Shown here one piece after another: positions 1 through 13,526 of a DNA stretch of 64,000 nt (positions are counted from its first letter, which is position 1; the number at the start of each line of letters is the position of its first letter). The stretch is from NCBI RefSeq assembly GCF_044324785.1, contig NZ_CP172127.1, one strand, 5' to 3'. The position numbers and the translations under genes are program-made. This DNA is from Escherichia coli. Lineage in GTDB: Bacteria; Pseudomonadota; Gammaproteobacteria; Enterobacterales; Enterobacteriaceae. The notes under the pieces were generated by a model. It was not told where the DNA came from and did not search any database. It saw only the letters and a list, made by a program, of their open reading frames with translations.

Positions 1-1
1 T

Positions 2-538
2 CATCGCATACAGCTATCATGGTATGCGCGGAATACTGCTGGCAGTACGAACGCGTATAACTATTTCGCGCTATCGAGTGATCCAGACGTTTTGTCTGCT
101 CAGGCATACGGCCCCCCCGTGACCCAACCTGGATACGTCGATATGTATGTCCTGTCGCGAACCGGCGACGGCACTCCGCCTCAATCACTACTGAATACAG
201 TTAATGCAGCGCTGTCTCCTGATGACACCCGACCGCTAACCGATTTCGTTACAGTAAAACCTGCGTCGAACCTGAATTACCGGGTTGAGGCCGTTATCGT
301 AGCGGGGCTCGGTCCCGACCAGAACGTGTTGCTCGACGGTGCTCAGAGCGATTTAGCTATATACGTGGCTACACAACATAAAATCGGGGCGACGGCAGCT
401 CTGTCGGGAATTTACGATGCGATACACCGTGACGGCACTGAGCGTGTGATTCTGATATCGCCAACAGAGGATGTGATCGCTGGCGTCGGACAGGCCCCGC
501 ACTGCACAGAAATCAAACTCAGCGTGCAAATGGGGTAG
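2..538 (+). CDS. Baseplate assembly protein J-like, C-terminal part (truncated by window start)
   Basis: Reading frame is open from position 2 with no upstream stop; sits immediately upstream of the gpI-like gene as in P2. Assignment is by position and general resemblance only. Confidence 0.5.
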   Translation, partial: HRIQLSWYARNTAGSTNAYNYFALSSDPDVLSAQAYGPPVTQPGYVDMYVLSRTGDGTPPQSLLNTVNAALSPDDTRPLTDFVTVKPASNLNYRVEAVIVAGLGPDQNVLLDGAQSDLAIYVATQHKIGATAALSGIYDAIHRDGTERVILISPTEDVIAGVGQAPHCTEIKLSVQMG

Positions 539-540
539 CC

Positions 541-1167
541 ATGACAAGTCAAAGCGTACTGCCTCCGAACGCAATAACCCCCGAGAGAGCGCTGGAATCT
601 GTTTTATCTCACGTTGGCGATCTGCCTGGCGATATTCGAATTATTAAAAATCCCGATTTGTGTCCTGCAAATCTGTTGCCGTGGCTGGCGTGGGAATACG
701 CCGTCACCTACTGGAACCCCGACTGGAGCGAGCAGCAAAAACGCGAAATTATTAAAGCAGCTGCGTGGCAGAACAAGCACCGCGGAACGCGTGGAGCTGT
801 TGAACGAGCGTTATTAACAGTTGGATTTGAGAGCAAAATGAGAGAGTGGTTTGAAGCCACGCCGAGGGACGACCCGTATACATTCGCAATTAAAATATAT
901 CTGCTAAAAAGTATAGGGTTAGATTTAGAGCTATTGAATACATTTATAGCGCAAATATTTGATGCAAAAAATTGTCGTTCATTATTAAAGGAAATAAATT
1001 TCGAAACGGGTGTCGATGGTGAGTTTTTTATAGCCGGTACACCTTACGCGAAAATAGACGTAAACGTCCCAGCAGACGGCGACGGCGGTGTAAAAATTAA
1101 CGGCGGGCTATATATATCGGGCTCACCAATTGTTAGTTTAAATGTGGAGATAGGGCCAAATGGCTGA
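541..1167 (+). CDS. Phage tail/baseplate protein I-like
   Basis: 208-aa ORF between the J-like and H-like genes; start is 2 nt after the J stop and it overlaps the H start. Confidence 0.55.
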   Translation: MTSQSVLPPNAITPERALESVLSHVGDLPGDIRIIKNPDLCPANLLPWLAWEYAVTYWNPDWSEQQKREIIKAAAWQNKHRGTRGAVERALLTVGFESKMREWFEATPRDDPYTFAIKIYLLKSIGLDLELLNTFIAQIFDAKNCRSLLKEINFETGVDGEFFIAGTPYAKIDVNVPADGDGGVKINGGLYISGSPIVSLNVEIGPNG

Positions 1168-2284
1168 AAATAAAATTTACGCAGTACTGACAGACCGTGG
1201 CGCACAACTCGAGGCCGCTGCCCTGGCGTCAGGCGTTCCAGTGGTGCTGAACAAATTTGTTATCGGTGACGCGAACGGAAACGACGATGTAACACCAGAC
1301 CCTGCACGAACAGCATTAATTCACGAGACGTATCGCGGTGATATTAAATCGTCAGAAAATAGCGGTAATCAGGTTATTTTTACGCTATACGTACCACCGG
1401 AAACCGGCGGCTATACTATCCGCGAAGTGGGAATACTGACAGATAAAGGTGAACTGTACTCTGTAGCGCGTTCGCCGGATATTTTAAAACCCACGGACAG
1501 TAACGGCGCGCTGATTTCAATCACGTATAAATACACTCTCGCGGTGTCCAGCACCTCTACAGTTAATGTTGTAGTATATGACAACTACGTAACTCCCGAA
1601 GCAGCTGACAAAAAATATTTGCAGATAAGTAAAAACTTATCTGAAATTTCCGCAAATGGTGAAACTGCTCAGCAGGCTGCGCGGAAAAATATTGGTATAG
1701 ATGGGGATGTTGCATATAGAGATAAGAGTAATACATTTACAACTCAAAACACTTTCAAAGACGATGTTTTTTTTGAAGATATTTTGATTTCTAAAAAACA
1801 AATAAATATAAATAAACCAGATACCAACTTGACATTATTTTCGCTTGCGGGCTGGTCAGATGTGAGCGGTGATTATTTAGAAGTGTCGACGCGGGGGGGA
1901 AATAATCAAAACGTTTTTTATAGATTACGCGGAATTCACTATGACGGCCTGGTGTTACTGTGCGGCGGGCAGACGTATAAATATTGGAATGAGGGAAATC
2001 TTAAACCGGTTAAAACGATTAACGGGAAGTCCCCAGACGCTAACGGGAACGTCGCAATAACAGTAAGTAGCTCAGGGATACAGAACGTCCAGCTTGGCGC
2101 AGAGGTTGCTCACACACCGGCGAGTAATGAGGTTACGTGGGACTTTAAATGTCCGACCGGCTGTGTTCTTACTGGGATATATGTTCAGGAAACCGGCGAC
2201 AGCTCAGCTGATAATATCGGCGGTGTTTATTATAAACCGATCCAAAAATACATTAATAATGTATGGACTACGATTTCCGGATGA
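1160..2284 (+). CDS. Tail fiber protein, P2 gpH-like (short, 374 aa)
   Basis: N-terminal region (LIHETYRGD...YVPPETGGYTIREVGILTD) and C-terminal motif (YYKPIQKYINNVWTTISG) resemble the conserved ends of P2 gpH as I remember it; the central region is AT-rich. Confidence 0.7.
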   Translation: MAENKIYAVLTDRGAQLEAAALASGVPVVLNKFVIGDANGNDDVTPDPARTALIHETYRGDIKSSENSGNQVIFTLYVPPETGGYTIREVGILTDKGELYSVARSPDILKPTDSNGALISITYKYTLAVSSTSTVNVVVYDNYVTPEAADKKYLQISKNLSEISANGETAQQAARKNIGIDGDVAYRDKSNTFTTQNTFKDDVFFEDILISKKQININKPDTNLTLFSLAGWSDVSGDYLEVSTRGGNNQNVFYRLRGIHYDGLVLLCGGQTYKYWNEGNLKPVKTINGKSPDANGNVAITVSSSGIQNVQLGAEVAHTPASNEVTWDFKCPTGCVLTGIYVQETGDSSADNIGGVYYKPIQKYINNVWTTISG

Positions 2285-2287
2285 GTT

Positions 2288-2866
2288 ATGCAAAATTTAA
2301 AATCATTTAAGCTTGTAAAACCTAAAACGAAATTACTTAAACTTAGCGAGTCTGACGGACAAAATGTTTTGTATCTTCAGTCCGAAGACGGCCTGGATTG
2401 GTATGAATGCCAGTCACTGTATCGCGATGACACAGTAAAAATAATGTACGACAAAGAAAACATTATTCGATCAGTTGTTGATCGCCCGGTCCCGGAGCGA
2501 GGAAATACCTATTCTGTGAGCATGTTTTTCCCGATTGATATGAGTGTTACGGAGGTTGAGTTGAGCACATATCCTTCTGAGCTAACTCTCGACGGATCGT
2601 GGAAATTTGTTGACGGTGATGTATATCAAGATGAGCTCATTGTAAATGAGCGTATTTACAAAGAAAACTCCAAAAAAATTAATGAATTAGTCCGAGAGGC
2701 TCAGTCAGCAATTCTAAATTTACAAACGGCCATAGAGATTGATATTTCATCAGATGGTGATGAGGAAAAATTAATAGAATGGCGACGGTACCTGTGCGCG
2801 CTGAATAAAATAACAGCCACGGATCTGAGTCAGTCCCCACTTAACACGCCTTTACGACCAGCATAA
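2288..2866 (+). CDS. Tail fiber assembly chaperone (Tfa/gpG-like)
   Basis: 192-aa ORF immediately downstream of the fiber gene; AT-rich; position is typical of a Tfa. Confidence 0.55.
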   Translation: MQNLKSFKLVKPKTKLLKLSESDGQNVLYLQSEDGLDWYECQSLYRDDTVKIMYDKENIIRSVVDRPVPERGNTYSVSMFFPIDMSVTEVELSTYPSELTLDGSWKFVDGDVYQDELIVNERIYKENSKKINELVREAQSAILNLQTAIEIDISSDGDEEKLIEWRRYLCALNKITATDLSQSPLNTPLRPA

Positions 2867-2878
2867 ATAGGGTACCTA

Positions 2879-4384
2879 ATGAGCACTAATTTTTTACACG
2901 GTATTCGCACGCTCGAATACGACGACGGCACAAAAGAGATTAGCACGGTAGATATTTCAGTTATCGGGATTGTTGGTACTGCACCGGATTCCGCGCAATC
3001 AACCAGTTCCGAGTTAATAACAGGGAGTGCTATTTTAAAAAACCGCCTGAAATTCACGGCGACGGGACAGGGGGTGAACGGCAATTCATGGAGCGTAGAG
3101 ATTCTCGAAACCGATCCGGACGGCTGCACGGCACTGTGGAGTGATATGCCCGACGGGAGTCGACGTTTATCAATATCAGTCGCACCGGCATCCGGCTCGC
3201 ACGGATACACCCCAGCAGAAATCGTGCAGGCAGTCACAATAGCAAACCCGCCTCCGGACCAATTATTTTTAACAATTACGGCAGTAGATGTCGAGGAGGA
3301 CGCGGGAAATGTGACTGCCTCACCGTTGCAATATTTAAGCGGCGGCAGTGATGAGGCGTTCCCAATTAATACCCCCGTACTTGTTGCCGGGAGTCCAAAA
3401 AAATCCGCTTTACTGGGTGAGCGCGGCACGTTGCCGAAAGATATTGCCGATATTTTCAATCAGGACAACGCCTTGCTTGTTGTTGTACGAGTAAAAGATG
3501 ACAAAGACACAACAAAACAACAGCAAAATATTATCGACGGTGTCAAGCAGCTGGAAAAATCGAAACAGTTAACCGAAGTCACACCGCGTATTATTATTGC
3601 ACCAGATTTTAGCGCAATTGATGCGATAGCCGCTCAGCTTGAGGTGGCCGCAAATAAACTCCGGGGGGTGTGTTATATAGACTCTCCGCGCGCTGCTACC
3701 CCTGCAGACGTTGTGAATCGCCGGCAAAAACTCGGCGGACGTGCTGAGTTGTTGCGTCCCCGTGTTTATTCAACTAGCGACGTCGGGGGGCAATCAAGAC
3801 CGTATTCTGCCATCGCTGCTGGTTTACGAGCCAGAATTGATAATGAAAAAGGGTTTTGGTGGAGTAAGTCGAATCAAAATATTTATGGAATAACAGGGCT
3901 TGAGCAGGTTGATGATTTCATTATTGGCGAGACAAACTGCACAGCGAACCTGCTGAACGCTAGTCAGGTCAGCACCATCATTCGCTATGACGGATTCCGA
4001 CATTGGGGTAACTATCTGTGCAGCCTGGATCCGCAATGGTCGTTTGAATGCGTTCGTCGAACAGCTGACGTAATTGAGGATTCTATAGCCCGGGCAATGA
4101 TGACCGATTTTATTGATCGCCCGATAGACCTGCATCTCGGAACAGACGTTGTCGAGTCGATAAACGCGTATCTGCATAAATTAGAGGAGCAGGGTGCGAT
4201 TAACGGAGGGCGTGCGTGGTTAGACGGTGAGCTGAATACAAAAGAAAGTCTGGCCGCTGGCAATCTTTATATTAATGTTGATTTTGGTCCGAAATCTCCG
4301 GCACAAACAATTACGTTAATGTACCGCATTAATAATGACTATACAGTTGAAGCACTAGCCTCACTTTTTAAAGAAACAGCCTGA
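2879..4384 (+). CDS. Contractile tail sheath protein (gpFI-like)
   Basis: 501 aa; the N-terminal region (HGIRTLEYDDGTKEISTV...IGIVGTA) and later ...RYDGFRHWGN... resemble the P2 FI sheath family. Confidence 0.85.
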   Translation: MSTNFLHGIRTLEYDDGTKEISTVDISVIGIVGTAPDSAQSTSSELITGSAILKNRLKFTATGQGVNGNSWSVEILETDPDGCTALWSDMPDGSRRLSISVAPASGSHGYTPAEIVQAVTIANPPPDQLFLTITAVDVEEDAGNVTASPLQYLSGGSDEAFPINTPVLVAGSPKKSALLGERGTLPKDIADIFNQDNALLVVVRVKDDKDTTKQQQNIIDGVKQLEKSKQLTEVTPRIIIAPDFSAIDAIAAQLEVAANKLRGVCYIDSPRAATPADVVNRRQKLGGRAELLRPRVYSTSDVGGQSRPYSAIAAGLRARIDNEKGFWWSKSNQNIYGITGLEQVDDFIIGETNCTANLLNASQVSTIIRYDGFRHWGNYLCSLDPQWSFECVRRTADVIEDSIARAMMTDFIDRPIDLHLGTDVVESINAYLHKLEEQGAINGGRAWLDGELNTKESLAAGNLYINVDFGPKSPAQTITLMYRINNDYTVEALASLFKETA

Positions 4385-4401
4385 TAATTCGGAGAGTAAA
4401 T

Positions 4402-4914
4402 ATGTCAGACAGCAACGCTTACCGCGCGTTTGCGCTATTCGTGCAGGGCGAACGGGTTTTAAATTGTACTGAATATACTCCTGTCGATATGAAAATAATC
4501 GAGGACGAGTTTAAAACAGGCGCGATGGATACAGCTATCACATTAGATGGCGGTATGGAGAAAATGTCAGCCAGTTTTAAAGTTTCGGGTTCTGATTCTG
4601 GTGTTATGAGCTATTTCGGGTTAATACCGGGAGTCAAGACGCGGTTTGAAATTCGTAGTGCGTACACAGACTCCTATGGAATAAATTTTGAGCGTATTGA
4701 TACCTACGAGGGACTTATTACGGCAATCACTGATGACGCTCAGGGGACTGATTCAAAATCGTCAGTGGGGCAATCAGTAACGATTGCGCCGAGCTATTAT
4801 AAACGAGTTCAAAATGGACGAATTATTTACGAAATTCATCCTGCAAAAATGAAACGCGTTATCAACGGTGTTGATGTTCTTGCGGGCGTCGCTCGAATCC
4901 TTCATGTATATTAA
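4402..4914 (+). CDS. Tail tube protein (gpFII-like)
   Basis: 170 aa immediately after the sheath gene; size and position match FII. Confidence 0.8.
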   Translation: MSDSNAYRAFALFVQGERVLNCTEYTPVDMKIIEDEFKTGAMDTAITLDGGMEKMSASFKVSGSDSGVMSYFGLIPGVKTRFEIRSAYTDSYGINFERIDTYEGLITAITDDAQGTDSKSSVGQSVTIAPSYYKRVQNGRIIYEIHPAKMKRVINGVDVLAGVARILHVY

Positions 4915-4926
4915 AAGGTAAGTAAA

Positions 4927-5208
4927 ATGGAATCCTTATTAGACAGTATGACTATTACGCTCTCTCGACCGTTTATTATTAAGGGCGAGAGCTGCGATAC
5001 AATTACTATTCGCGAACCCAAATTACGCGACCGCATTATGTTCAGTAACGATAAAAGCAGTCTTGAAGAGCGGACAGCGACAATGCTGGCGCGCCTGGCA
5101 AATCTGGAAAGAGAGGATTTATATGCGCTCCCCGCGTGCGATTACGATCAACTGGAGGCCGCGTTTAACGAACTGGTAAAGCACCCGAAAGACCGACATC
5201 AGATATAG
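4927..5208 (+). CDS. Tail assembly chaperone (gpE-like); possible -1 frameshift extension E' to 5288
   Basis: 93-aa ORF between tube and tape measure. The -1 frame is open from 5169 to a TAA at 5286-5288. Confidence 0.55.
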   Translation: MESLLDSMTITLSRPFIIKGESCDTITIREPKLRDRIMFSNDKSSLEERTATMLARLANLEREDLYALPACDYDQLEAAFNELVKHPKDRHQI

Positions 5209-5316
5209 TTATTCTGATTCCGTTTATTGCGAAAAAACTTGCCATCCCGCCTGATACGCAAATGGACCTGCCGTATCGGGTTTTTAATTTCTATGTAGAC
5301 GAGGTCATGAAAACCG

Positions 5317-6957
5317 ATGGCTATTTCTCAAAACTTTAAAACGCAGGTTGTATTCGGGGGGCGAATAGACCCGTCGTTTCGGCGCGGTACAACAGAACTC
5401 AACGACGCCATTCGGCAGACGTCGTCTACTGTCGGAAAATTAACGAAAAGCCAGGATAAATTAAAAGACAAAATCGCAGCAATGAAACTGGCAGGTAAAG
5501 ATGTCTCTGATTTATCTGCTCAATATCAAAAGCTGGACCGTCGGATAAAGGCGACAACGCAGGACCAGGAGGCGCTGAATACCCAGCTTGCTAAAAAACA
5601 GCGGCTGGAGAAGTGGACGGGGCGCGCAAAAGGTGCTGCAAAATGGGGCGGACGAGCCGCCGCAGGTGCGGTGAGGGCCACGGGACGGGGTATCAAATGG
5701 GGGACGCTGGGGGCCGTGGGTCTGCTCGGCGGCGCGGCTGCTGGCGCGCTGGCAATGAATGCAGAGACGTCAGAAAAACTCGGTCTGGCGAAGTCCTACG
5801 GTGTTGGCATCGAAAAATACGCTGCGTGGGAAAATATTGGTAAAGCTGCGGGCCTGAACGGCGAAAATGTTGGTGACCTGTCAGAAGAACTTACAAATAA
5901 AATCGGCGAAATCGGAAACGAAAAAAACCTGAACCCCATGTTGTTTCAAATTGGCTTGACAAAAAAACGGATGGCTAAATGGGATCGAGAAAAACAGTTC
6001 AATGAAGTTATGCGGCGTATCTCTGAAATGAAGGATGATCAACAGGCGGCGAGTCTGGCTGATCAGCTAATGGGGGGAGAGGCTAATAAAATAATGACCT
6101 ATATGCGGGCGACTGGTAAAAGCTGGGAGCAGACTATGTCGGACGCTCAAAAATCAAACCTGCTAACGAAAGAAGGGGCTGAGGGTGCAGCGCGCGCGCA
6201 CGTATCCGTCACGAATCTGTGGGGGGCAATCACATCGGGGCTGGCAGATACTCTCGGCAAAATCGGAGGGGAACTCGCGCCGACGTTTGACGCTATGCGA
6301 GACGGGCTGGCATCCTGGTTTAAAGAGAATCAAGGGGGGGTTGTTGATAGTATTAAAGAATGGGTTAAGCCAGAAAATATGAAAAAACTTTGGGAGGGGA
6401 TAGTCAGTTTTGGCGAGGCGTGCGTTAAATTCGGAAAAATAATTTGGGCAGTCGTAAAAAAACTGGAGTGGTTAATCCCGGACGAGAAAACAGACGAGGA
6501 ACAGCGCGTATATAACGAAGAATATAATAAAGCGTATCAGGAATTCATGGATAGTGGTGGTAAATATTCACCGAACCCAGGACTGGCAGCAGATAATGTA
6601 GCAAAAGCAAAAGCCGACGAAGCCGTGGATAATATGCGACACCCTGAACGTCTTGCTCGTGCAAAATCACAGGCTGAATCAATGCTCTCGTTTGCTAACC
6701 CGTTTACTGGATTAATAAATAAAGACTCAACGCCTGAATCACAAAACTCAGCAACGTTGAATATTGACGCGCTGAGACAGGCAGTCGCAACTCCAGCGCC
6801 AGAGCAAAACAATAAAATTGAAATCAATATTATCGGAGCAGCAGATCCACAATCAACACAGCAGGCTGCCGCATCGGGTGTGCTCGACGGGCTGAGACAG
6901 GTTGCGAGTTCGTACAATCGTGGTGCAATGTTTGATAAACCAGCGGCGGCGGGGTGA
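5317..6957 (+). CDS. Tail tape measure protein (gpT-like)
   Basis: 546 aa, with an N-terminal coiled-coil-like region and a Gly/Ala-rich stretch (GRAAAGAVRATGRG...GLLGGAAAGALA); position after E. Confidence 0.8.
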   Translation: MAISQNFKTQVVFGGRIDPSFRRGTTELNDAIRQTSSTVGKLTKSQDKLKDKIAAMKLAGKDVSDLSAQYQKLDRRIKATTQDQEALNTQLAKKQRLEKWTGRAKGAAKWGGRAAAGAVRATGRGIKWGTLGAVGLLGGAAAGALAMNAETSEKLGLAKSYGVGIEKYAAWENIGKAAGLNGENVGDLSEELTNKIGEIGNEKNLNPMLFQIGLTKKRMAKWDREKQFNEVMRRISEMKDDQQAASLADQLMGGEANKIMTYMRATGKSWEQTMSDAQKSNLLTKEGAEGAARAHVSVTNLWGAITSGLADTLGKIGGELAPTFDAMRDGLASWFKENQGGVVDSIKEWVKPENMKKLWEGIVSFGEACVKFGKIIWAVVKKLEWLIPDEKTDEEQRVYNEEYNKAYQEFMDSGGKYSPNPGLAADNVAKAKADEAVDNMRHPERLARAKSQAESMLSFANPFTGLINKDSTPESQNSATLNIDALRQAVATPAPEQNNKIEINIIGAADPQSTQQAAASGVLDGLRQVASSYNRGAMFDKPAAAG

Positions 6958-7382
6958 CAATGAGTGATGCAATAAACGGTGCTGAGGATATCATGCTCGG
7001 TTTGGGTGATTTCATTTTTGCTATATCAACAGTAGCGTACAACAAACTGCAACGTAGTGACGCCTGGCGCTGGGCTCAGCAAACACGATTCGGGAAAAAC
7101 GACGCATTGCAGATAACCGGACGACCGAACCCCACAATCACGATCGATGGGAAAATAAACGCGTTATTCCTTGATGGGTGCGGCATTGGCTTGTTAACAG
7201 ATTTGCGGGCACTGGGGAACTCGGGAGAACCCCAGCAACTGGTGCTGGGGACCGGGGAGGTGAAGGGGTACTGGGTTATCAGGGAGTTAACAGAAACGCA
7301 AAACAGTTTTCTGAAAGGAGGGACCCCAAAATCGCAGGACTTTTCACTCACGCTCGAATATTATGGAGCTTCGCTAGATTAA
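6954..7382 (+). CDS. Tail protein gpU-like
   Basis: 142 aa, overlaps the tape-measure stop (ATGA); position. Confidence 0.6.
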   Translation: MTMSDAINGAEDIMLGLGDFIFAISTVAYNKLQRSDAWRWAQQTRFGKNDALQITGRPNPTITIDGKINALFLDGCGIGLLTDLRALGNSGEPQQLVLGTGEVKGYWVIRELTETQNSFLKGGTPKSQDFSLTLEYYGASLD

Positions 7383-7544
7383 TACAAAATCAAGCGCTAC
7401 CAGAGCACTTAACAAGTATAAAAATAATAAAAAAAACTACGAGCATAAATGTAAAACAACCTGATGGTATTTTTTTTTGACGCCGAAATACTAATACCTC
7501 TCCGACTACTAAAATTAATTCTCATTATGAAATCCTTTTAATTA

Positions 7545-7769
7545 ATGGGGCCCCAAATGATTACATACACTACACGGGACGGTGACCGTCTCGATCAGAT
7601 CTGCCTTGCTGTCTACGGGAGAACAGCAAAAACGACAGAAACCGTGTTATATCAGGTTTTAAATTACGGCGTAACGGATATGTGTGCCGTGTTTCGTGCA
7701 GGAGAAAAAATTGTTTTACCAGAAATCGACCCCGAACCGGCTAAAAAAGAAACGCAATTATGGGATTGA
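7545..7769 (+). CDS. Tail protein X-like (LysM-like); a start at 7557 (MITYT...) is also possible
   Basis: Sequence ...DRLDQICLAVYGRT...ETVLYQVLNYGV...AGEKIVLPEI... resembles P2 gpX as I remember it. Confidence 0.65.
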   Translation: MGPQMITYTTRDGDRLDQICLAVYGRTAKTTETVLYQVLNYGVTDMCAVFRAGEKIVLPEIDPEPAKKETQLWD

Positions 7770-7772
7770 TGA

Positions 7773-8816
7773 ATGAGTGATTACGTAAATACTGGCGTGG
7801 AAGCATGGAAGCCCAATTTTTATATATCTGCTGATAATGAAAACATCACGGATAAAATAAGAAAAGGTTTGATCAATATCACGCTCACAGATTATGGTGG
7901 TTCGAGTAAACAGACAGACGAATTACGCGTAGCAATCGTTTCTGAAACTCTGAAAATTCCGGCCCGCGGAGTAAAAATCAGTATTGGGCTCGGTTTCGGT
8001 AATCAGATAATTGATAAGGGTGTATACATCGTTGATGGTGCGAGCAGTGGCGGTGAACCCCGGGTAGTTGATTTCACAGCAAAAGCAGCTCCGATGAACG
8101 CATCAAAAGGCTCTCCGACAGTTCAGAGCAAAAAAACTCGCTCCTGGAGCGACGTCACTGTCAGCAATATCGTTGCAACAATAGCGAGCGATAACGGGCT
8201 AAAACCTCGCGTATCAAAGCGGTTTGCAGACAACATTATCACGCAGCTCGATCAAGTCGGCGAGTCAGATATGCACCTGATGTCGCGGCTCGCAACGAGA
8301 TTCGATGCGGTGAGTAAACCCGCGGGCGGGTACTGGATATTCCTGCCGCGCGGCGCGGGCGAATCTGTTAGCGGAGCACCGCTTCAGCACTACACGCTCA
8401 CGCGTCGTGATAACTCAAGCTGGGGTTATTCGAGAAATGGACAAAACGGTGATAGTGGCGGAGGTGGCGAAAATGCGGAGCCAACGTATTTGATCAAATA
8501 TCACGATACAGCAACGGGGCAGATCAAAGAATTGCGTACGGGCAGTGGCGGCGATCCTGTAATCGAGTGGCCGGCAGTGGAGCCGTCGCTTGATGCAGCG
8601 AAAGAAGCTGCGCCAGGACTCAAGGGCGGTGCAGCTAAAAAAGAGTTCTCCATGACTTACACGACGCCCGCGACGCTCGATTTAGTATCGCTGACTGCAG
8701 AATGCAAAGTCACAACACAAGGATTCGGGACAGAGGAGGACCGAGACTGGACAATCAATACGTTGACGCTGACGCTGGCTGAAAACGGATTCTCTGCGCG
8801 ACTGTCGCTGGAGTAA
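7773..8816 (+). CDS. Tail protein D-like
   Basis: 347 aa immediately after the X-like gene, as in R-type pyocin/phiCTX-like clusters. Confidence 0.65.
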   Translation: MSDYVNTGVEAWKPNFYISADNENITDKIRKGLINITLTDYGGSSKQTDELRVAIVSETLKIPARGVKISIGLGFGNQIIDKGVYIVDGASSGGEPRVVDFTAKAAPMNASKGSPTVQSKKTRSWSDVTVSNIVATIASDNGLKPRVSKRFADNIITQLDQVGESDMHLMSRLATRFDAVSKPAGGYWIFLPRGAGESVSGAPLQHYTLTRRDNSSWGYSRNGQNGDSGGGGENAEPTYLIKYHDTATGQIKELRTGSGGDPVIEWPAVEPSLDAAKEAAPGLKGGAAKKEFSMTYTTPATLDLVSLTAECKVTTQGFGTEEDRDWTINTLTLTLAENGFSARLSLE

Positions 8817-8821
8817 ATGAA

Positions 8822-10648
8822 ATGGCAATAATATCGGGTGTATACGCAAATGGGGTCGGCGAGCCCGTTGTCGGCGTTCAGTTAGTATTAACAGCACGGG
8901 TCACGAGTTCACGCGTAGTAATGACCACTGTTGTAGAGCAAGAAACAGGCGCGGCGGGTGAGTACAAATTTGATATGAAGCCCGGAGTTTACGTTGTCAC
9001 TGCTAGTGCGGCATATCTCGGCGTGATTAACGTTAACCCGGACAGTGTTGACGGCACGTTAAACGACTATTTGACTAATTTTAGCGCAGACGAACTGACG
9101 CCAGCTGCGTTGGCGGAGATCCAGGAACTCGTTGCCACAGCACAAGCCGCTGCCAGTGTTGCCAGCGCCGCCGCAACGGAGGCCAGGCAGAATGCCGCCG
9201 CCGCCGCTGCTGCTGCGCAGATTTCGACGGCAGCGGCAGGGAGCGCCAGATTTGAGAATTTTGACGAAATTATCAATGTCAATACAACAGCAATGCTGGA
9301 GCTGGAAAAACCGGAGGTGTTAGATCCGGATATTGCAATAACTATCACAGAGACGATTAATTATAACTATATTGGCCCGGTAAACGGATTTTGCGACGTT
9401 ACTAGCCCGCTTGAATATAAAATTCAAATGTACGCCTACACAACAGGCGAATATTTTAACGGCGAAACAAATTTAACAGCGGACGGGAAGTTTTCTTTTA
9501 AACGTTCCTGGGCTGGTGCAAAACAATTCAGATTGGTGCGCGTAGCAGATAGTAAATGGATCACTACGCTGGAATACCCGCTGTGTATTCGCAGTTACTG
9601 GATGCCCGCTGACGCCGATCCCGAGGTAGTCAGCGTCATGAAAGACCGTTGCTACACATATGATCAGGCGTGCGCGGCGCTGGCTCTCATGGCGCAGAAT
9701 CACGAGGCGGTAGAGCGTTATGTTACGGGTCTGTGCGCCCTGGTGGGTGAAAACGGCGGCATTAAATTTTTTGTTAACCGGCTGTCCGCACAGTCCTCCC
9801 GCGAATATTACCGCACGGGTAACGCGGCGTGGGTGTTGTACGCCCTGGCATTCTATCTGAGCAAATACCCTACCGGCAGTAACGCTGAGTTAGCGCGCGC
9901 GAAATTAAACGCCGGGCTAACCTGGCTGGACGGTCTGAAGGTTGACGCCAGCGGCGACCCGCGCCACGGCTTATACATGGGCGGCAACGGTAAATATCTG
10001 GAGGACGGATCATTTGATCCGAATTATGTTGCGACCTGGTGCGCGCTCGAGCACAACGTTGATATTTATTTTTTATTCGAACTCGTTGGACGGTTAACCG
10101 ATTTTACCGGATACGAACTGCGAGCCACCACGCTGGCTGCAAATATCGTGGAAAAATTCTGGATTGAGAGCGAGGGGCGATTCCGGCAGGGCGTGCACAT
10201 TGACGGCCCGGACAACGCCGCAGCGCTGGATCAATCGAGTTGGGGCGGGATATTCGCAGTAAAAGCCGCGCCGGAGTTGGCGGAAAAATGCCGCCGTTAT
10301 ATGGAAAGATTCCGGTTCGGCACACTGGAGAGCACCGGTTATACACCGTATCACCCGGACTACGGATACAGCGGCCATAGCCGTGGCGTGTGGACCGAGG
10401 GTACAGCGGGTGTAGCACTATTCGAACGTGCGCTAGGGAACGAGCAGAGAGCTACCGATCTGATCGCGGGATTAAAACCACTGCGTAATGAATACGGCTA
10501 TCGCGACTCATGCGACGATAAAAAATACGACACACTGCCGGACTGGCCGTCGACTACAAACACCGCTTGGGTTATTTTAACATGCAAGCCGGCGGGGTTT
10601 TGGTGCGTAGATTTCCCGGTATTGGACGTTGGTATCGTCAGGTACTGA
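8822..10648 (+). CDS. Side-tail-fiber-like protein: lambda Stf-like N-terminal domain, Ala-rich linker, and an unassigned ~400-aa C-terminal domain
   Basis: N-terminus MAIISGVYANGVGEPVVGVQLVLTARV...GEYKFDMKPGVYVV...GTLNDYL parallels the lambda Stf N-terminus. An AAAAAAAAQISTAAAG stretch follows, then a Trp/Tyr-rich globular region with no transmembrane or signal sequence. Confidence 0.6.
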   Translation: MAIISGVYANGVGEPVVGVQLVLTARVTSSRVVMTTVVEQETGAAGEYKFDMKPGVYVVTASAAYLGVINVNPDSVDGTLNDYLTNFSADELTPAALAEIQELVATAQAAASVASAAATEARQNAAAAAAAAQISTAAAGSARFENFDEIINVNTTAMLELEKPEVLDPDIAITITETINYNYIGPVNGFCDVTSPLEYKIQMYAYTTGEYFNGETNLTADGKFSFKRSWAGAKQFRLVRVADSKWITTLEYPLCIRSYWMPADADPEVVSVMKDRCYTYDQACAALALMAQNHEAVERYVTGLCALVGENGGIKFFVNRLSAQSSREYYRTGNAAWVLYALAFYLSKYPTGSNAELARAKLNAGLTWLDGLKVDASGDPRHGLYMGGNGKYLEDGSFDPNYVATWCALEHNVDIYFLFELVGRLTDFTGYELRATTLAANIVEKFWIESEGRFRQGVHIDGPDNAAALDQSSWGGIFAVKAAPELAEKCRRYMERFRFGTLESTGYTPYHPDYGYSGHSRGVWTEGTAGVALFERALGNEQRATDLIAGLKPLRNEYGYRDSCDDKKYDTLPDWPSTTNTAWVILTCKPAGFWCVDFPVLDVGIVRY

Positions 10649-10676
10649 CAATTATAATTTTTGGAGTTTTTTATAC

Positions 10677-11096
10677 ATGGTCGTTAAAAATATTCTTGCC
10701 TTTGGGATTATGTGTGCGCTTGCTGGTTGTGCAACCAAGCCAGTCTCAAACGAGCAGGCTACTCCCGTTCCAGAAAAACAGGTAATCAATAGCGCAATAC
10801 TCGAAAAAAGAGATGGGACAGGAGAGGTGATCATCAAGCGTGATTCGGGTTTCTTTGGGAGCGCGTGCTTTTCCCGTGTTTATGTTGATGGTAAAGAGGT
10901 GGCAGATTTAGGTACAGCTCAGAAAGTCGTTGTATACCCAACGATTGGTGATCATGTCTTCAGCGCGTGGCCAAAAGGAGTATGTGGTGGTGGCATGAGT
11001 GAGCAGGCGGGCAAGGTGACAACAGATCGTACTTTGATGTATCGCATAGGTTACGGTTCAAACGGTGAATATGGCATTCACCCAACTGCGTTTTAA
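10677..11096 (+). CDS. Small predicted outer-membrane lipoprotein (prophage cargo)
   Basis: GGAG about 10 nt upstream of the ATG at 10677. Signal peptide MVVKNILAFGIMCALAGC with lipobox LAGC; the residue after Cys is Ala (not an Asp inner-membrane retention signal); several Cys in the mature part. Confidence 0.55.
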   Translation: MVVKNILAFGIMCALAGCATKPVSNEQATPVPEKQVINSAILEKRDGTGEVIIKRDSGFFGSACFSRVYVDGKEVADLGTAQKVVVYPTIGDHVFSAWPKGVCGGGMSEQAGKVTTDRTLMYRIGYGSNGEYGIHPTAF

Positions 11097-11253
11097 CTGT
11101 GTTGGGTATGCGATTTTATTCGCATACCCCTTAGGGCAATTGACGATACTTCCAAATGACCATTATTTTACGTGTGGCCTCGATGTTGCGCACATGAGAG
11201 TTCTATATTCTTTCAAACAGGATTATCCCATTGATTTAATTATACTTTCGTAT

Positions 11254-11314
11254 GGTCTCGAAAACCGGAGTAGGGGCAACTCTACCGGGGGTTCAAATCC
11301 CCCTCTCTCCGCCA
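11254..11314 (+). repeat. Partial 3' copy (61 nt) of tRNA-Ser(CGA), serU-like; putative prophage attR
   Basis: GGTCTCGAAAACCGGAGTAGGGGCAACTCTACCGGGGGTTCAAATCCCCCTCTCTCCGCCA matches the anticodon-stem-to-CCA part of E. coli serU as I remember it. The upstream sequence does not match the tRNA 5' half. Confidence 0.8.
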
Positions 11315-11860
11315 CTTTATCAATGACTTATCTCCCGACTTCCCGCCTTGCTTTTCCTAAACAGAACAATCGTAGAATATTCTTGAAGGGTTAGATCGTC
11401 ACTGTTTTCTGTTCGATACTGTGACATTCAGCACTTGATTCGCTATGGATCTGACAGGAAGGTTTCGAGCGAAAATCTGCAGTTATTCAGTCGTTTTCTT
11501 ATCGCTCACCATTATTCTTTTAGACATTCATCCTATGAAACTGCCGCAAAGTTGGTGGTGGGAACTGAAGTTGCGTAGAGAAGGGGGCAATAATTGAGCC
11601 AAAAAAGGAACGCGGCCGTCAGATTAAAGCCGCGGGACAAAGTCCATAATTTCCAAGAGTTGTTGAATTTCCCAGCTTTTTTGAAAGCCTTTGTATCATA
11701 CTAACAAGTAAAAAAGGTTTAAATACCAAAATTAACCTATATTTCTGGTTAGCTTTACCATGACAGATGACTTGCTTCTGGAGACATTGGCGCTGCCAGT
11801 CTGTATTGGTGAGTTGTGTATTTATTGTTCGCCGCTTTCTCGGTTTTTTTCTACAGACAT

Positions 11861-11894
11861 AATAAAAAAGACACGTCTCAAGCATGAGCGTGTC
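11861..11894 (-). terminator. Rho-independent terminator downstream of zinT
   Basis: Hairpin GACACGTCTCA-AGCA-TGAGCGTGTC, followed on the minus strand by a T-run. Confidence 0.6.
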
Positions 11895-11983
11895 TGAGTT
11901 TGTTTTATTTATTTGTCTTGGTAAATTATTGTCGTTACTACCAGGCACTGTTCTGTTAAATAATTGAAGTCAGCGCAAAAAAA

Positions 11984-12634
11984 TCAATGAGACATCATCT
12001 CCTCGACCACTTCTTCGCTACTCAACTGATAGGGATAATACGTTGGCCAGTTTTCCATTTCATTTAATAAAGATTGCTGTGAATCATTACCCATAAAAAT
12101 GTGAAAATGAGATGATTTTCGTGGTGCAATTATATGATCGCTAAATTGAATATATTTAGGGGCTTTGCTTTCAGGATCTTTACATTCGAATAAGTAACGA
12201 ACGCCTTTCTTGCCTGATTTATAGGTGAGTATTTTGTATCCATCATAATCATATTTACAGGATGTTGTTTCATTATTTCTATGGAATTCAACAATGCCGT
12301 CCTCAATGCCAATCATCTCGATATCTGTCACATAACCTTTGCGATAATAATCTTTAATTTCAGCAAATGTTTTAGTTTTATCTGCATCCGCTTTCTTCTG
12401 AAAGACGGGGTCAAGTTTGCCACTTTGCAGTAAAGGATAAACGGATTGCCAGACTCCATCCCAGTCACTGAGCGTTCGGTTTTGTACATTGGCATCATCA
12501 AAAACACCATTAGCAGCTTTTTGTTCGACCTCTGTTAAGGGTTTGCCGTGTGAGTGATGACCATGCGAAAAGGCAGGAGCGCTAACAATAAAGACACCTA
12601 AAGCAACAGCCAGTTTATGAAGACGAATCGCCAA
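11984..12634 (-). CDS. zinT: Zinc/cadmium-binding periplasmic protein ZinT (YodA)
   Basis: 216 aa with signal peptide and His-rich HGHHSHG motif; recognised as E. coli ZinT. Confidence 0.9.
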
Positions 12635-12668
12635 AACAGTTTCCTCCAGAGTTAATGTATATGATGTG

Positions 12669-12689
12669 TAATGTTATATTGTAACATAT
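12669..12689. promoter_or_regulatory. Candidate Zur box upstream of zinT
   Basis: Near-palindrome TAATGTTATATTGTAACATAT about 35 bp upstream of the zinT start codon. Confidence 0.55.
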
Positions 12690-12812
12690 AACAAAATGCA
12701 ACAACTCTTAGGAGACAAGAGAATAGTTATCTCAGGTGTGCTTATCTATCTTATTGAAATAAAATAAATTATGTCGATGATTTGAGGTTGATGACAAACG
12801 AAACATAACTTG

Positions 12813-12860
12813 ATGTGATCTGCGTAGGCCGGATAGGGCGCTCGCGCCGCATCCGGCAGG
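12813..12860. repeat. REP (repetitive extragenic palindromic) element
   Basis: GCGTAGGCCGGATAGGGCGCTCGCGCCGCATCCGGCAGG is the typical E. coli REP consensus type. Confidence 0.7.
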
Positions 12861-12890
12861 GATAACGCGTACTTTGTCGGCAATATGAAG

Positions 12891-13526
12891 TTATACAGAT
12901 AATTTGTTGTGAACCTGCTTGCGTAACCGGTTAAAAAGGGAACGCAACTTCTTATACCGTAAGGCTAAAAGCAGTACAGCCAGCCCAGCGTAGATGAGTG
13001 GCTGCGGTGAAATAATCTTCACTGACCACAGATAATGTACTGGGGCAAGGATCGCGACAAGATAGACGAAGTTATGCAACTGTTGCCAGTTTTTGCCGAG
13101 TTTTCGCTGCATCGCCTGGGTTGAAGTGAACGCTAAAGCAAGCAAAATTATCCAGCTGATAATACCTAACGTTAAATAAGGCCGGGTAATTAACTCCTTG
13201 CCTAATAACGCCAGATTATTCACGCCCAGCTCCAGTAATGCGTAACTGGTTAAATGCAGTGTCGCCCAGGCAAAGCACCATAAGCCTAACAGGCGGCGAG
13301 TGCGTATCAATAACGGCTGTTTTGCGTAGCGTGCCAGAGGTGTGATTAACAAGGTCGCCAGCAAAAATTTCAGTGCAGTGCGACCAGTAAAATGCTGAAT
13401 ATCTTTCACCGGATCGGCACCCAATCCACCGTGATTAATCGCCCAGACCAGCCAGAGAAACGGCAACAATCCGGCAAGATGCAGGCAAACTTTCAGCCAT
13501 GTCACCTGTTTTGCTGTCAGACGCAT
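12891..13526 (-). CDS. msrQ: Methionine sulfoxide reductase heme-binding subunit MsrQ (YedZ)
   Basis: 211-aa polytopic membrane protein directly downstream of msrP; recognised. Confidence 0.9.

Follow-up and report, generated by a model that had tools for sequence, protein, structure and literature searches.

The contractile-tail genes beside zinT in an Escherichia coli genome very probably form the right end of a temperate myovirus integrated in serU

A run of contractile-tail genes that stops at a piece of a tRNA-Ser gene raises the question of whether the DNA belongs to a complete phage, to a remnant, or to an element made of a tail only. We asked this of a 64,000-nucleotide stretch of an Escherichia coli genome, hereafter the window (NCBI RefSeq assembly GCF_044324785.1, contig NZ_CP172127.1), for which an earlier note, made from the sequence of the window, had left the choice undecided. 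The answer that we reach, and hold with high confidence, is that a temperate myovirus of about 47.6 kb was recombined by a tyrosine integrase into the 3' end of serU, and that positions 1 to 11253 are the 11.25 kb of this prophage that adjoin attR.

We found 13 co-directional tail genes in positions 1 to 11096, where every long open reading frame (ORF) lies on the plus strand, and matches to PHROGs, NCBIfam, and Pfam families bear out the earlier description of about 11 kb of co-directional contractile-tail genes (Table 1). The start of the baseplate J gene lies to the left of the window, and its 3' part continues a 306-aa Baseplate_J ORF that is seen in contigs identical to the window. The gpI-type protein scores 103 bits against TIGR01634 tail_P2_I, compared to a cut-off of 30, and the tail tube matches TIGR01611 tail_tube with an E value of 1e-16, yet falls under the cut-off of that family. 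The start codon of gpU is ambiguous, giving 129, 140, or 142 aa depending on the caller, and the gpD homologue is named in RefSeq either "phage late control protein" or "VgrG/Pvc8 family." The tape measure gene is placed between the gpE-type chaperone and gpU, and its start is overlapped by a -1 frame that is open for 56 codons. From this frame we infer, by analogy only, a putative E' frameshift product of the chaperone; a search for a canonical X XXY YYZ slippery heptamer found none, and a modeled E+E' fusion protein gave a PHROG match no longer than that obtained without the fusion. The first fiber is variable among relatives, with identity down to 88% and an alignment that stops at about position 1648. 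Promoter and terminator counts in a scan of positions 7300 to 12000 were at chance level. Taken as a whole, the tail would work as a contractile injection machine in the style of P2 and would bind receptors through two fibers.

Table 1. Features of the prophage right end and its chromosomal flank (window coordinates)
Feature	Position	Strand	Family match or basis
Baseplate J, 3' part	1-538	+	phrog_4226 and phrog_6 baseplate families, E 3e-44
P2 gpI-type baseplate/tail protein, 208 aa	541-1167	+	TIGR01634 tail_P2_I, phrog_48, PF09684
Tail fiber, gpH-type collar N terminus, 374 aa	1160-2284	+	phrog_5075, phrog_381, PF12571 Phage_tail_fib
Tail fiber assembly chaperone, 192 aa	2288-2866	+	phrog_136, E 4e-40; PF02413 Caudo_TAP
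Contractile tail sheath, 501 aa	2879-4384	+	phrog_23, E 1e-106; PF04984, PF17482
Tail tube, 170 aa	4402-4914	+	PF04985 Phage_tube
gpE-type tail assembly chaperone, 93 aa	4927-5208	+	phrog_166, PF10109 Phage_TAC_7
Putative E' -1-frame extension	5169-5336 (4927-5336 with the chaperone)	+	inferred only
Tape measure, 546 aa, intact	5317-6957	+	phrog_3654 full length, E 6e-249
gpU-type tail terminator	6954-7382	+	phrog_76; PF06995 Phage_P2_GpU
gpX-type tail protein (LysM-like), 74 aa	7545-7769	+	phrog_46; PF05489 Phage_tail_X
gpD-type baseplate hub/late control D protein, 347 aa	7773-8816	+	phrog_52, E 1e-92
Second fiber, 608 aa	8822-10648	+	PF08400 phage_tail_N, phrog_13714
Lipoprotein, 139 aa, lipobox LAGC	10677-11096	+	phrog_890 "lipoprotein," E 4e-52
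Phage-side arm of attR	11097-11253	+	read from sequence
attR core, 77-nt repeat	11254-11330	+	100% identical to intact serU
zinT	11984-12634	-	chromosomal flank

The right boundary of these genes is formed by tRNA sequence. Positions 11254 to 11314 are identical, at 61 of 61 nucleotides and on the plus strand, to the 3' end of intact serU tRNA-Ser(CGA), the references being E. coli 300033 (L002:5972-6061), C41, K-12, and the public draft genome GCA_958309045.1. The CGA anticodon is contained in this piece, and ARAGORN called no tRNA at these positions, so we treat it as a fragment and not as a gene. The earlier note had described a 61-nt same-strand tRNA-Ser(CGA) fragment, and as a fragment this is exact; the direct repeat itself, however, is 77 nt and not 61, since identity to the attL copy extends 16 nt beyond it, to position 11330 (11315 to 11330, CTTTATCAATGACTTA). 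The sequence of the whole core is GGTCTCGAAAACCGGAGTAGGGGCAACTCTACCGGGGGTTCAAATCCCCCTCTCTCCGCCACTTTATCAATGACTTA. Homology to the empty site, in strain 300033 and in K-12, begins only at 11254, which puts the break exactly at the core, and from there rightward a single unbroken match to the E. coli chromosome follows, at 98.7% identity. On the phage side, the arm of attR contains a perfect 10-bp hairpin (11104 to 11129), and positions 10999 to 11253 are about 95% identical to the matching stretch of the C41 prophage.

The chromosomal DNA to the right of attR carries zinT and msrQP. In K-12 the locus has the order serU-yodB-zinT and is phage-free, as the earlier note had stated, and yodB sits between the tRNA gene and zinT; the description "next to zinT" is thus correct for the studied strain, which is without yodB, but not for the K-12 map. 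Strain 300033 has an unoccupied serU site in a likewise yodB-less background. Two Rfam matches, a subthreshold "Plastid-psbl-rps4" antisense to the tRNA fragment and a REP-like naRNA4 match at 12827 to 12892, were dismissed. We also checked leuZ, toward the opposite end of the window, for a second prophage and found none; yecA and tyrP directly adjoin it.

The window begins inside gene J, and attL, int, and the head genes are known from near-identical public assemblies only. We found that GCA_958309045.1 matches positions 1 to 20648 with 2 mismatches (99.99% identity) and contains the 77-nt core twice, 47,594 bp apart, with the two cores identical. The left core lies inside an intact tRNA-Ser(CGA) serU, and a 342-aa PF00589 tyrosine integrase (L022:1291-2319) sits 86 bp from the 3' end of the tRNA and reads towards it, an arrangement also seen in C41. 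The second direct repeat and intact tRNA-Ser on which the attR geometry had been staked, and the integrase expected beside them further left, are all found in this genome, and the locus combines a repeat at both ends, an adjacent integrase, and an empty site elsewhere, as in other integrations into tRNA genes. The 3' end of serU was present in the phage attP as a 77-nt copy, and integration restored an intact serU at attL beside int, with the original 3' piece pushed to attR. In lysogens serU stays intact, and the right boundary of the strain-specific prophage of about 47.6 kb is fixed at the attR core.

Read from attL, the element carries int, a DUF4224 gene, early genes, and a cI-like repressor with YdaS (cro-like) and YdaT, followed by an O-like protein, a DnaB helicase, morons, a Q antiterminator, two holins, an endolysin, TerS, and TerL. 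These are followed by a lambda head set (W-B-C-D-E-FI-FII) and a P2-type tail (V-W-J-I-H-G-sheath-tube-E-T-U-X-D), and after gpD come a lambda Stf-type second fiber and a lipoprotein gene. Contigs that are 100% identical over window positions 1 to 11167 have lambda-type head and terminase genes directly upstream, encoding GpA terminase, gpW, Phage_portal_2, an S49 protease, HDPD, Phage_cap_E, and FI and FII-like proteins. The leftward search that the earlier note had proposed, for capsid, terminase, replication, and integrase genes, found all of them, together with lysis and Q genes, in contigs identical or nearly identical to the window. The genome is modular, with lambdoid control and head modules and a P2-type tail, and late transcription would depend on Q and run rightward as a single unit that spans the genes for lysis, head, and tail.

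R-pyocins in Pseudomonas are domesticated P2-type tail clusters, and the window shows tail genes only, both of which count in favor of an R-type tailocin or other domesticated contractile tail cluster without capsid genes. We consider such a tail-only unit extremely improbable, given that the window starts within gene J with the operon extending leftward, that the identical contigs have the head and terminase genes directly upstream, and that the whole 47.6 kb includes int and genes for a repressor and for replication. What the identical contigs carry upstream led us to reject this reading and that of a remnant. By gene content the element is a complete prophage, and the question left undecided at the outset is settled by its terminase, portal, protease, capsid, replication, repressor, Q, lysis, and integrase genes. 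A search for a complete phage genome record matching the element found none, only partial PHASTER-derived records at 91.6% identity (head plus tail), and the 20-kb early region had almost no match in phage databases.

Type I-E CRISPR spacers of many E. coli match the tail module, with one protospacer in the sheath gene (3091 to 3122) and a second in the gpU gene (7150 to 7181). The tail-matching spacers have a functional ATG PAM (PMC12736100), a sign that this phage family has entered E. coli as invading DNA. The element is a concrete reference for the prophage family that is targeted by E. coli CRISPR arrays.

A full-looking gene set could also belong to a defective or cryptic prophage that neither excises nor gives infectious particles and that is kept for its lipoprotein, fiber, or morons, or has not yet decayed. 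The tape measure is broken into two ORFs in C41 and in two further relatives (contigs L007 and L033), the C41 relative also has a partial S49 protease, and the family keeps to a single fixed locus across many lineages, ST131 included, with no cultured isolate and no complete phage record to represent it. In contrast, the ORFs of the window are all intact and full length compared to family profiles, the essential modules are all present in a same-lineage genome, attL and attR have the same core at all 77 nt, and the PAM-proximal spacers in many E. coli imply recent mobility. We think a cryptic state unlikely; because no essential class of genes is missing and no ORF of the window is broken, the prophage probably retains the capacity to excise and to form particles.

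The second fiber has a lambda Stf-type N-terminal anchor, with PF08400 on residues 3 to 126 (E value, 1e-24). An AlphaFold2 model of residues 140 to 608 (pLDDT, 91.8) predicts that the protein continues past the anchor as a beta-sandwich and then a glycosidase-like (alpha/alpha)6-barrel C-terminal domain. Foldseek matched this model to GH76, GH78 rhamnosidases, GH116, and sugar epimerases, with E values of 1e-9 to 1e-6 and a TM score of about 0.5. The glycoside-hydrolase-like domain has many invariant acidic residues, D136, D142, E271, D275, and E387 of the modeled domain among them, and the C-terminal domain occurs on several different N-terminal anchors. The six-hairpin (alpha/alpha)6 fold hardly occurs among the viral structures of BFVD and, to our knowledge, lies outside the classical phage depolymerase folds. 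The adjoining lipoprotein had zero matches in Pfam, NCBIfam, PADLOC, and PDB sequences, and one remote homologue carries DUF2846; its AlphaFold2 model is a beta-sandwich (pLDDT, 89.5), for which Foldseek returned nothing significant from the PDB. A sigma-70-like promoter match (10629 to 10658, 10 of 12 positions) stands ahead of the lipoprotein gene; this gene may be a moron, transcribed in the lysogen from a promoter of its own. In the most far-reaching proposal, the fiber domain would be an unrecognized glycan-cleaving receptor-binding class and the lipoprotein its self-protection or superinfection-exclusion partner; separately, the prophage family may be one of the main natural targets of type I-E spacers in E. 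coli. We regard these proposals as speculative and improbable.

The fiber C-terminal domain and the lipoprotein also bear on the history of the right end, as they show 95% identity between a myovirus and a siphovirus prophage that both occupy serU. A prophage of siphovirus type (gpJ tail-tip) at the same site (contig L024) has a right end that matches window positions 9341 to 11761 at 95% identity and an identical lipoprotein, and prophage replacement and recombination at serU have been reported in STEC (PMC7067040). Together with the lambda Stf-type (PF08400) fiber N terminus, these data are what one would see if the serU fragment and the last 2 kb or so (fiber C terminus, lipoprotein, and attR arm) were the relic of an earlier lambdoid siphovirus prophage onto which a myovirus module had recombined, leaving a right end foreign to the myovirus. 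We treat this as possible, though not the likelier history. In the myovirus relatives that we examined (C41, the E24377A/SE11 group, and contigs L025 and L026), gpD is succeeded by a gene of Stf type, so the module is now a stable part of the family, whatever its origin, and the interpretation of attR is the same with or without such a relic.

The tail block is present in 452 of 5,426 complete E. coli genomes; the RefSeq complete genomes each cover at most 73% of positions 1 to 11400, and hundreds of draft contigs carry proteins identical to those of the window. The family is found at one locus across many lineages, ST131 among them, and in C41 a homologous annotated prophage lies between serU and yodB. 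serU is a documented hot spot of prophage insertion, with reports of prophages there from STEC O121 and O145 (PMC8767318, PMC7067040). A temperate phage in serU is a routine finding and an already known kind of insertion, of little significance beyond annotation, and it opens no new biological question; the element is useful for accessory-genome and strain typing.

The closest systems are the annotated serU prophages of C41, E24377A, SE11, and ST131 EC958, which share the integration site of the element, and with them we group the partial records vB_EcoM-720R5, -569R10, -705R4, and -783R5. All have the lambda-type head and P2-type tail order of the element, at 88 to 96% nucleotide identity from sheath to gpD and 91.6% over head plus tail, but they differ from it in the first fiber and in the N-terminal region of the sheath, and the second-fiber gene of C41 is shorter (337 aa compared to 608 aa). 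The LF82 "Cartapus" myovirus, considered as a family member, was rejected as Fels-2-like.

With P2 and the Peduoviridae the element shares tail synteny (V-W-J-I-H-G and FI-FII-E-T-U-D) and the tail families TIGR01634 (gpI), PF06995 (gpU), PF05489 (gpX), and gpD. In contrast, its sheath is only 34% identical to P2 FI, in an alignment limited to sheath residues 159 to 496 (67% of the length), and its gpX is placed between U and D. Its head and packaging genes are of lambda type and not the Q-P-O-N-M-L set of P2, its control (cI/cro and Q) and replication (O-like protein and DnaB) are not those of P2 (C, Cox, Ogr, and A), and megablast matched it to no Peduovirus.

The likeness to lambdoid phages lies in the gene order int, cI/cro, replication, Q, lysis, and head, in the lambda head gene set, and in the Stf-type N terminus of the side fiber. 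The lambda tail (V, G/T, H, M, L, K, I, and J) is noncontractile, whereas that of the element is contractile and P2 type, with sheath, tube, and baseplate V/W/J/I present and no homologues of lambda gpJ or gpV. The lambdoid, serU-integrating SerU-LTIIb, ev099, and PhiR70_1 have an identical 61-nt serU core, and mEp332 matches it at 60 of 61 nt. The integrase of the element is 55 to 62% identical to those of the serU-core phages Chris1, KpF5, P7641, and vB_EcoM-606R7 and 55% identical to that of Salmonella ST64B.

The small myoviruses Jilinvirus HeidiAbel Bas97 and Vibrio phage VHML, like the element, combine a lambda-like terminase and portal with a P2-type tail in the order U-X-D (PMC11990801). 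They gave the best nonprophage sheath matches (42% and 39% identity, respectively), and the relationship is distant. Unlike the element, HeidiAbel has a fused protease-capsid gene, its early region and primase are different, and it behaves as virulent (PMC11990801); a tRNA-Arg gene lies beside its integrase, and a match to the serU core was not found in it. Thus, the term "P2-like," which the earlier note had applied to the whole element, is true of the tail module only, while head, regulation, and replication are lambdoid, and as judged from its genes the element is a lambda-head, P2-tail hybrid with lambdoid control.

The stretch of phage DNA in window 1-11253 is very probably the attR-proximal part of a temperate prophage integrated in the 3' end of serU; what doubt remains arises because attL and the head genes were seen in near-identical genomes and because prophage activity is putative. 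All long open reading frames in window 1-11096 lie on the plus strand, and this tail block ends, as an earlier note had described, in the last 61 nt of the serU tRNA-Ser(CGA) on the same strand, a match that was exact to the base (61/61) when checked against K-12, strain 300033, C41, and GCA_958309045.1. ARAGORN found no tRNA in the prophage and tRNA-fragment part of the window. From 11254 rightwards, the window aligned in a single piece to the E. coli chromosome at 98.7% identity, with zinT, msrQ, msrP, hiuH, and hprRS to the right of attR. In strain 300033, which has an empty site, zinT comes directly after an intact serU, and the flanking DNA runs collinear with the window starting at 11254, at 98.4% identity across window 11254-12998. 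The K-12 locus, which consists of serU, 570 bp, yodB, and zinT, has no phage genes, as had been claimed.

We also found that the position next to zinT holds for this strain, while the K-12 map in the earlier note omitted yodB, a cytochrome b561 homolog located between zinT and serU in K-12. In the lineage of the window, 222 bp of unrelated sequence stands in place of a 995-bp K-12 segment containing yodB. Since strain 300033 has the same yodB-less haplotype, this loss is independent of the prophage. A REP-like element lies between zinT and msrQ, with a sub-threshold match to Rfam naRNA4.

The left part of the element was read by walking leftward from the window through public assemblies by exact-protein look-up. 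Three public contigs were 100% identical to window 1-11167 and two others were 99.99% identical to window 1-20648, so these two have both the prophage and its chromosomal background in common with the window. Within one contig of GCA_958309045.1, four overlapping loci merged cleanly into a sequence of 58,133 bp. There the 61-nt fragment forms part of a longer exact repeat of 77 nt, present in two copies at a distance of 47,594 bp from each other. The left one falls within an intact tRNA-Ser(cga) adjoining mtfA, and the right one corresponds to window 11254. A tyrosine integrase gene lies 86 bp from the tRNA, bearing out the prediction of an attR with integrase and intact tRNA further left, and is followed by a DUF4224 gene and early genes. 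Then come a cI-like HTH repressor gene, divergent from YdaS (cro-like) and YdaT genes, and genes for an O-like protein and DnaB helicase, several moron-like genes on the opposite strand (including an ImmA/IrrE peptidase), DUF1367, YbcO, and the Q antiterminator, two holins and an endolysin, and small and large (GpA) terminase subunits. The head genes encode gpW, portal, S49 protease, HDPD decoration protein, capsid E, FI, and an FII-like protein; two unknown genes separate them from baseplate V, W, and J, where the genes of the window continue the series.

Leftward extension thus recovered every class of gene that the earlier note had proposed to look for, namely capsid, terminase, replication, and integrase. 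A remnant or a tail-only cluster was rejected, as integrase, repressor, replication, Q, lysis, terminase, and head genes lie upstream in identical or near-identical contigs. Given this full series and a similarly arranged annotated homolog that E. coli C41 carries between serU and yodB, the element is by gene content a complete-looking prophage, with attL and head genes read in near-identical genomes outside the window. The locus has the geometry left when an integrase recombines an attB in serU with an attP that carries the 3' end of this gene, the tRNA being reconstituted at attL beside int and the displaced 3' piece lying at attR, past the last phage gene. By analogy with lambdoid phages and P2, lysogeny would be maintained by the cI-like repressor, and induction would lead through Q antitermination to a single rightward late transcript of lysis, head, and tail genes. 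Tail assembly may proceed as in P2, with a V/W/J/I baseplate with fibers, a tape measure with E/E' chaperones, a tube, a sheath, the gpU terminator, and gpX and gpD at the hub.

Tail genes were identified with PHROGs, NCBIfam, and precomputed Pfam tags.

Features of the window (tail genes numbered in order)
Feature	Position	Strand	Remarks
1, baseplate J		+	3' part only; window begins within gene
2, gpI		+	TIGR01634, above cut-off
3, gpH-type fiber		+	
4, fiber assembly chaperone		+	
5, sheath		+	
Sheath N-terminal region	2879-3350		~155 aa, residues ~1-158
Protospacer 1, sheath gene	3091-3122		32 nt
6, tube		+	
7, gpE-type chaperone		+	
Open -1 frame of gpE chaperone	5169-5336		overlaps tape-measure start
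8, tape measure	5317-6957	+	546 aa
9, gpU		+	
Protospacer 2, gpU gene	7150-7181		32 nt
10, gpX		+	
11, gpD		+	
12, second fiber		+	608 aa; lambda Stf-type N-terminus, PF08400
Second fiber, C-terminal 469 residues	9239-10645		residues 140-608
Sigma-70-like promoter match	10629-10658		just upstream of gene 13
13, lipoprotein	10677-11096	+	139 aa; last phage gene
Perfect 10-bp hairpin	11104-11129		just past gene 13; no U-tract
serU 3' fragment	11254-11314	+	
Replacement of yodB segment	11762-11983		222 bp
REP-like element	12827-12892		

A canonical slippery heptamer for an E' frameshift was looked for and not found, and there was no profile support for an E' extension of the gpE chaperone; such an extension is plausible because of the open -1 frame and its overlap with the tape-measure start. 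The tape-measure gene is intact in the window and split into two open reading frames in C41 and two other close relatives, suggesting that the family includes decaying copies.

For the C-terminal 469 residues of the second fiber, AlphaFold2 gave a confident model (pLDDT, 91.8) in which a beta-sandwich is combined with an (alpha/alpha)6 barrel, with many invariant acidic residues. In Foldseek, this model matched glycosidases of families GH76, GH78, and GH116 as well as sugar epimerases (E value, 1e-9; TM, ~0.5), and it has very few neighbors among predicted viral structures; the predicted fold would be unusual for a phage fiber tip. This domain occurs on several different N-terminal anchors. 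In addition, window 9341-11761, comprising the fiber C-terminus, lipoprotein gene, and attR arm, is 95% identical to L024:8666-11085 on a metagenome scaffold, where this stretch forms the right end of another prophage at serU, one of siphovirus type (gpJ tail-tip). This right-end module is therefore common to serU prophages of different tail types, which points to probable module exchange among serU phages. The lipoprotein is conserved across Enterobacterales prophages, had no family, defense-system, or structural match in the searches made, and is a candidate moron or exclusion factor.

We found the sheath-to-gpD block, at a coverage of at least 80%, in 452 of 5,426 complete E. coli genomes, among them E24377A, SE11, and members of ST131 (for example, EC958). 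Hundreds of draft contigs encode exactly the same gpI, sheath, and fiber proteins. Coverage of window 1-11400 was at most 73% in any RefSeq complete E. coli genome, and several draft contigs were DNA-identical; this precise variant is common among drafts and absent from the complete-genome set searched. Since the family is prevalent, a phage record named SerU-LTIIb exists, and serU is a documented site of prophages and integrative elements, with frequent replacement, in STEC O121:H19 and O145:H28 (PMC8767318, PMC7067040), the serU prophage is an ordinary finding, already known in kind.

In about 248 complete E. coli genomes, the best match to the tail block was a 34-nt perfect match in annotated CRISPR sequence. 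Both protospacers match type I-E spacers perfectly, and ATG, which is functional as a PAM in type I-E systems, stands before each. The spacer against the sheath gene occupies the leader-proximal position in the iap/cas2 array of strain 14EC001. These matches agree with reports that 28 spacers match the related record vB_EcoM-705R4 (PMC12736100) and that prophages are the main target of E. coli spacers (PMC10910852).

The observation made in the earlier note is thus confirmed, and its interpretation is supported with two corrections, K-12 yodB and the label P2-like. The tail module is indeed P2-type in content and order, yet the phage as a whole is, as judged from its genes, a hybrid: head and packaging genes follow lambda exactly, and control and replication genes are likewise lambdoid. 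GenBank phage records of the family are partial PHASTER-derived entries only (vB_EcoM-720R5, -569R10, -705R4, and -783R5; bioRxiv 10.1101/2022.06.29.498070), with 91.6% identity over head plus tail, and the early region had essentially no match in the phage database. The whole sheath is 71% identical to that of vB_EcoM-569R10, compared to ~91.6% at the DNA level for head plus tail. Its N-terminal region, within which one protospacer falls, lies outside alignments to P2-type FI sheaths. Integrases of Chris1, KpF5, P7641, and vB_EcoM-606R7, phages with the same serU core in their records, are 55 to 62% identical to that of the prophage, and that of ST64B is 55% identical. The P2 FI sheath is 34% identical, aligning to residues 159-496 only, while among cultured phages the nearest sheath sequences are those of Jilinvirus HeidiAbel (42%) and VHML (39%). 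Like the prophage, both phages pair a P2-type tail in U-X-D order with a terminase and portal that are lambda-like.
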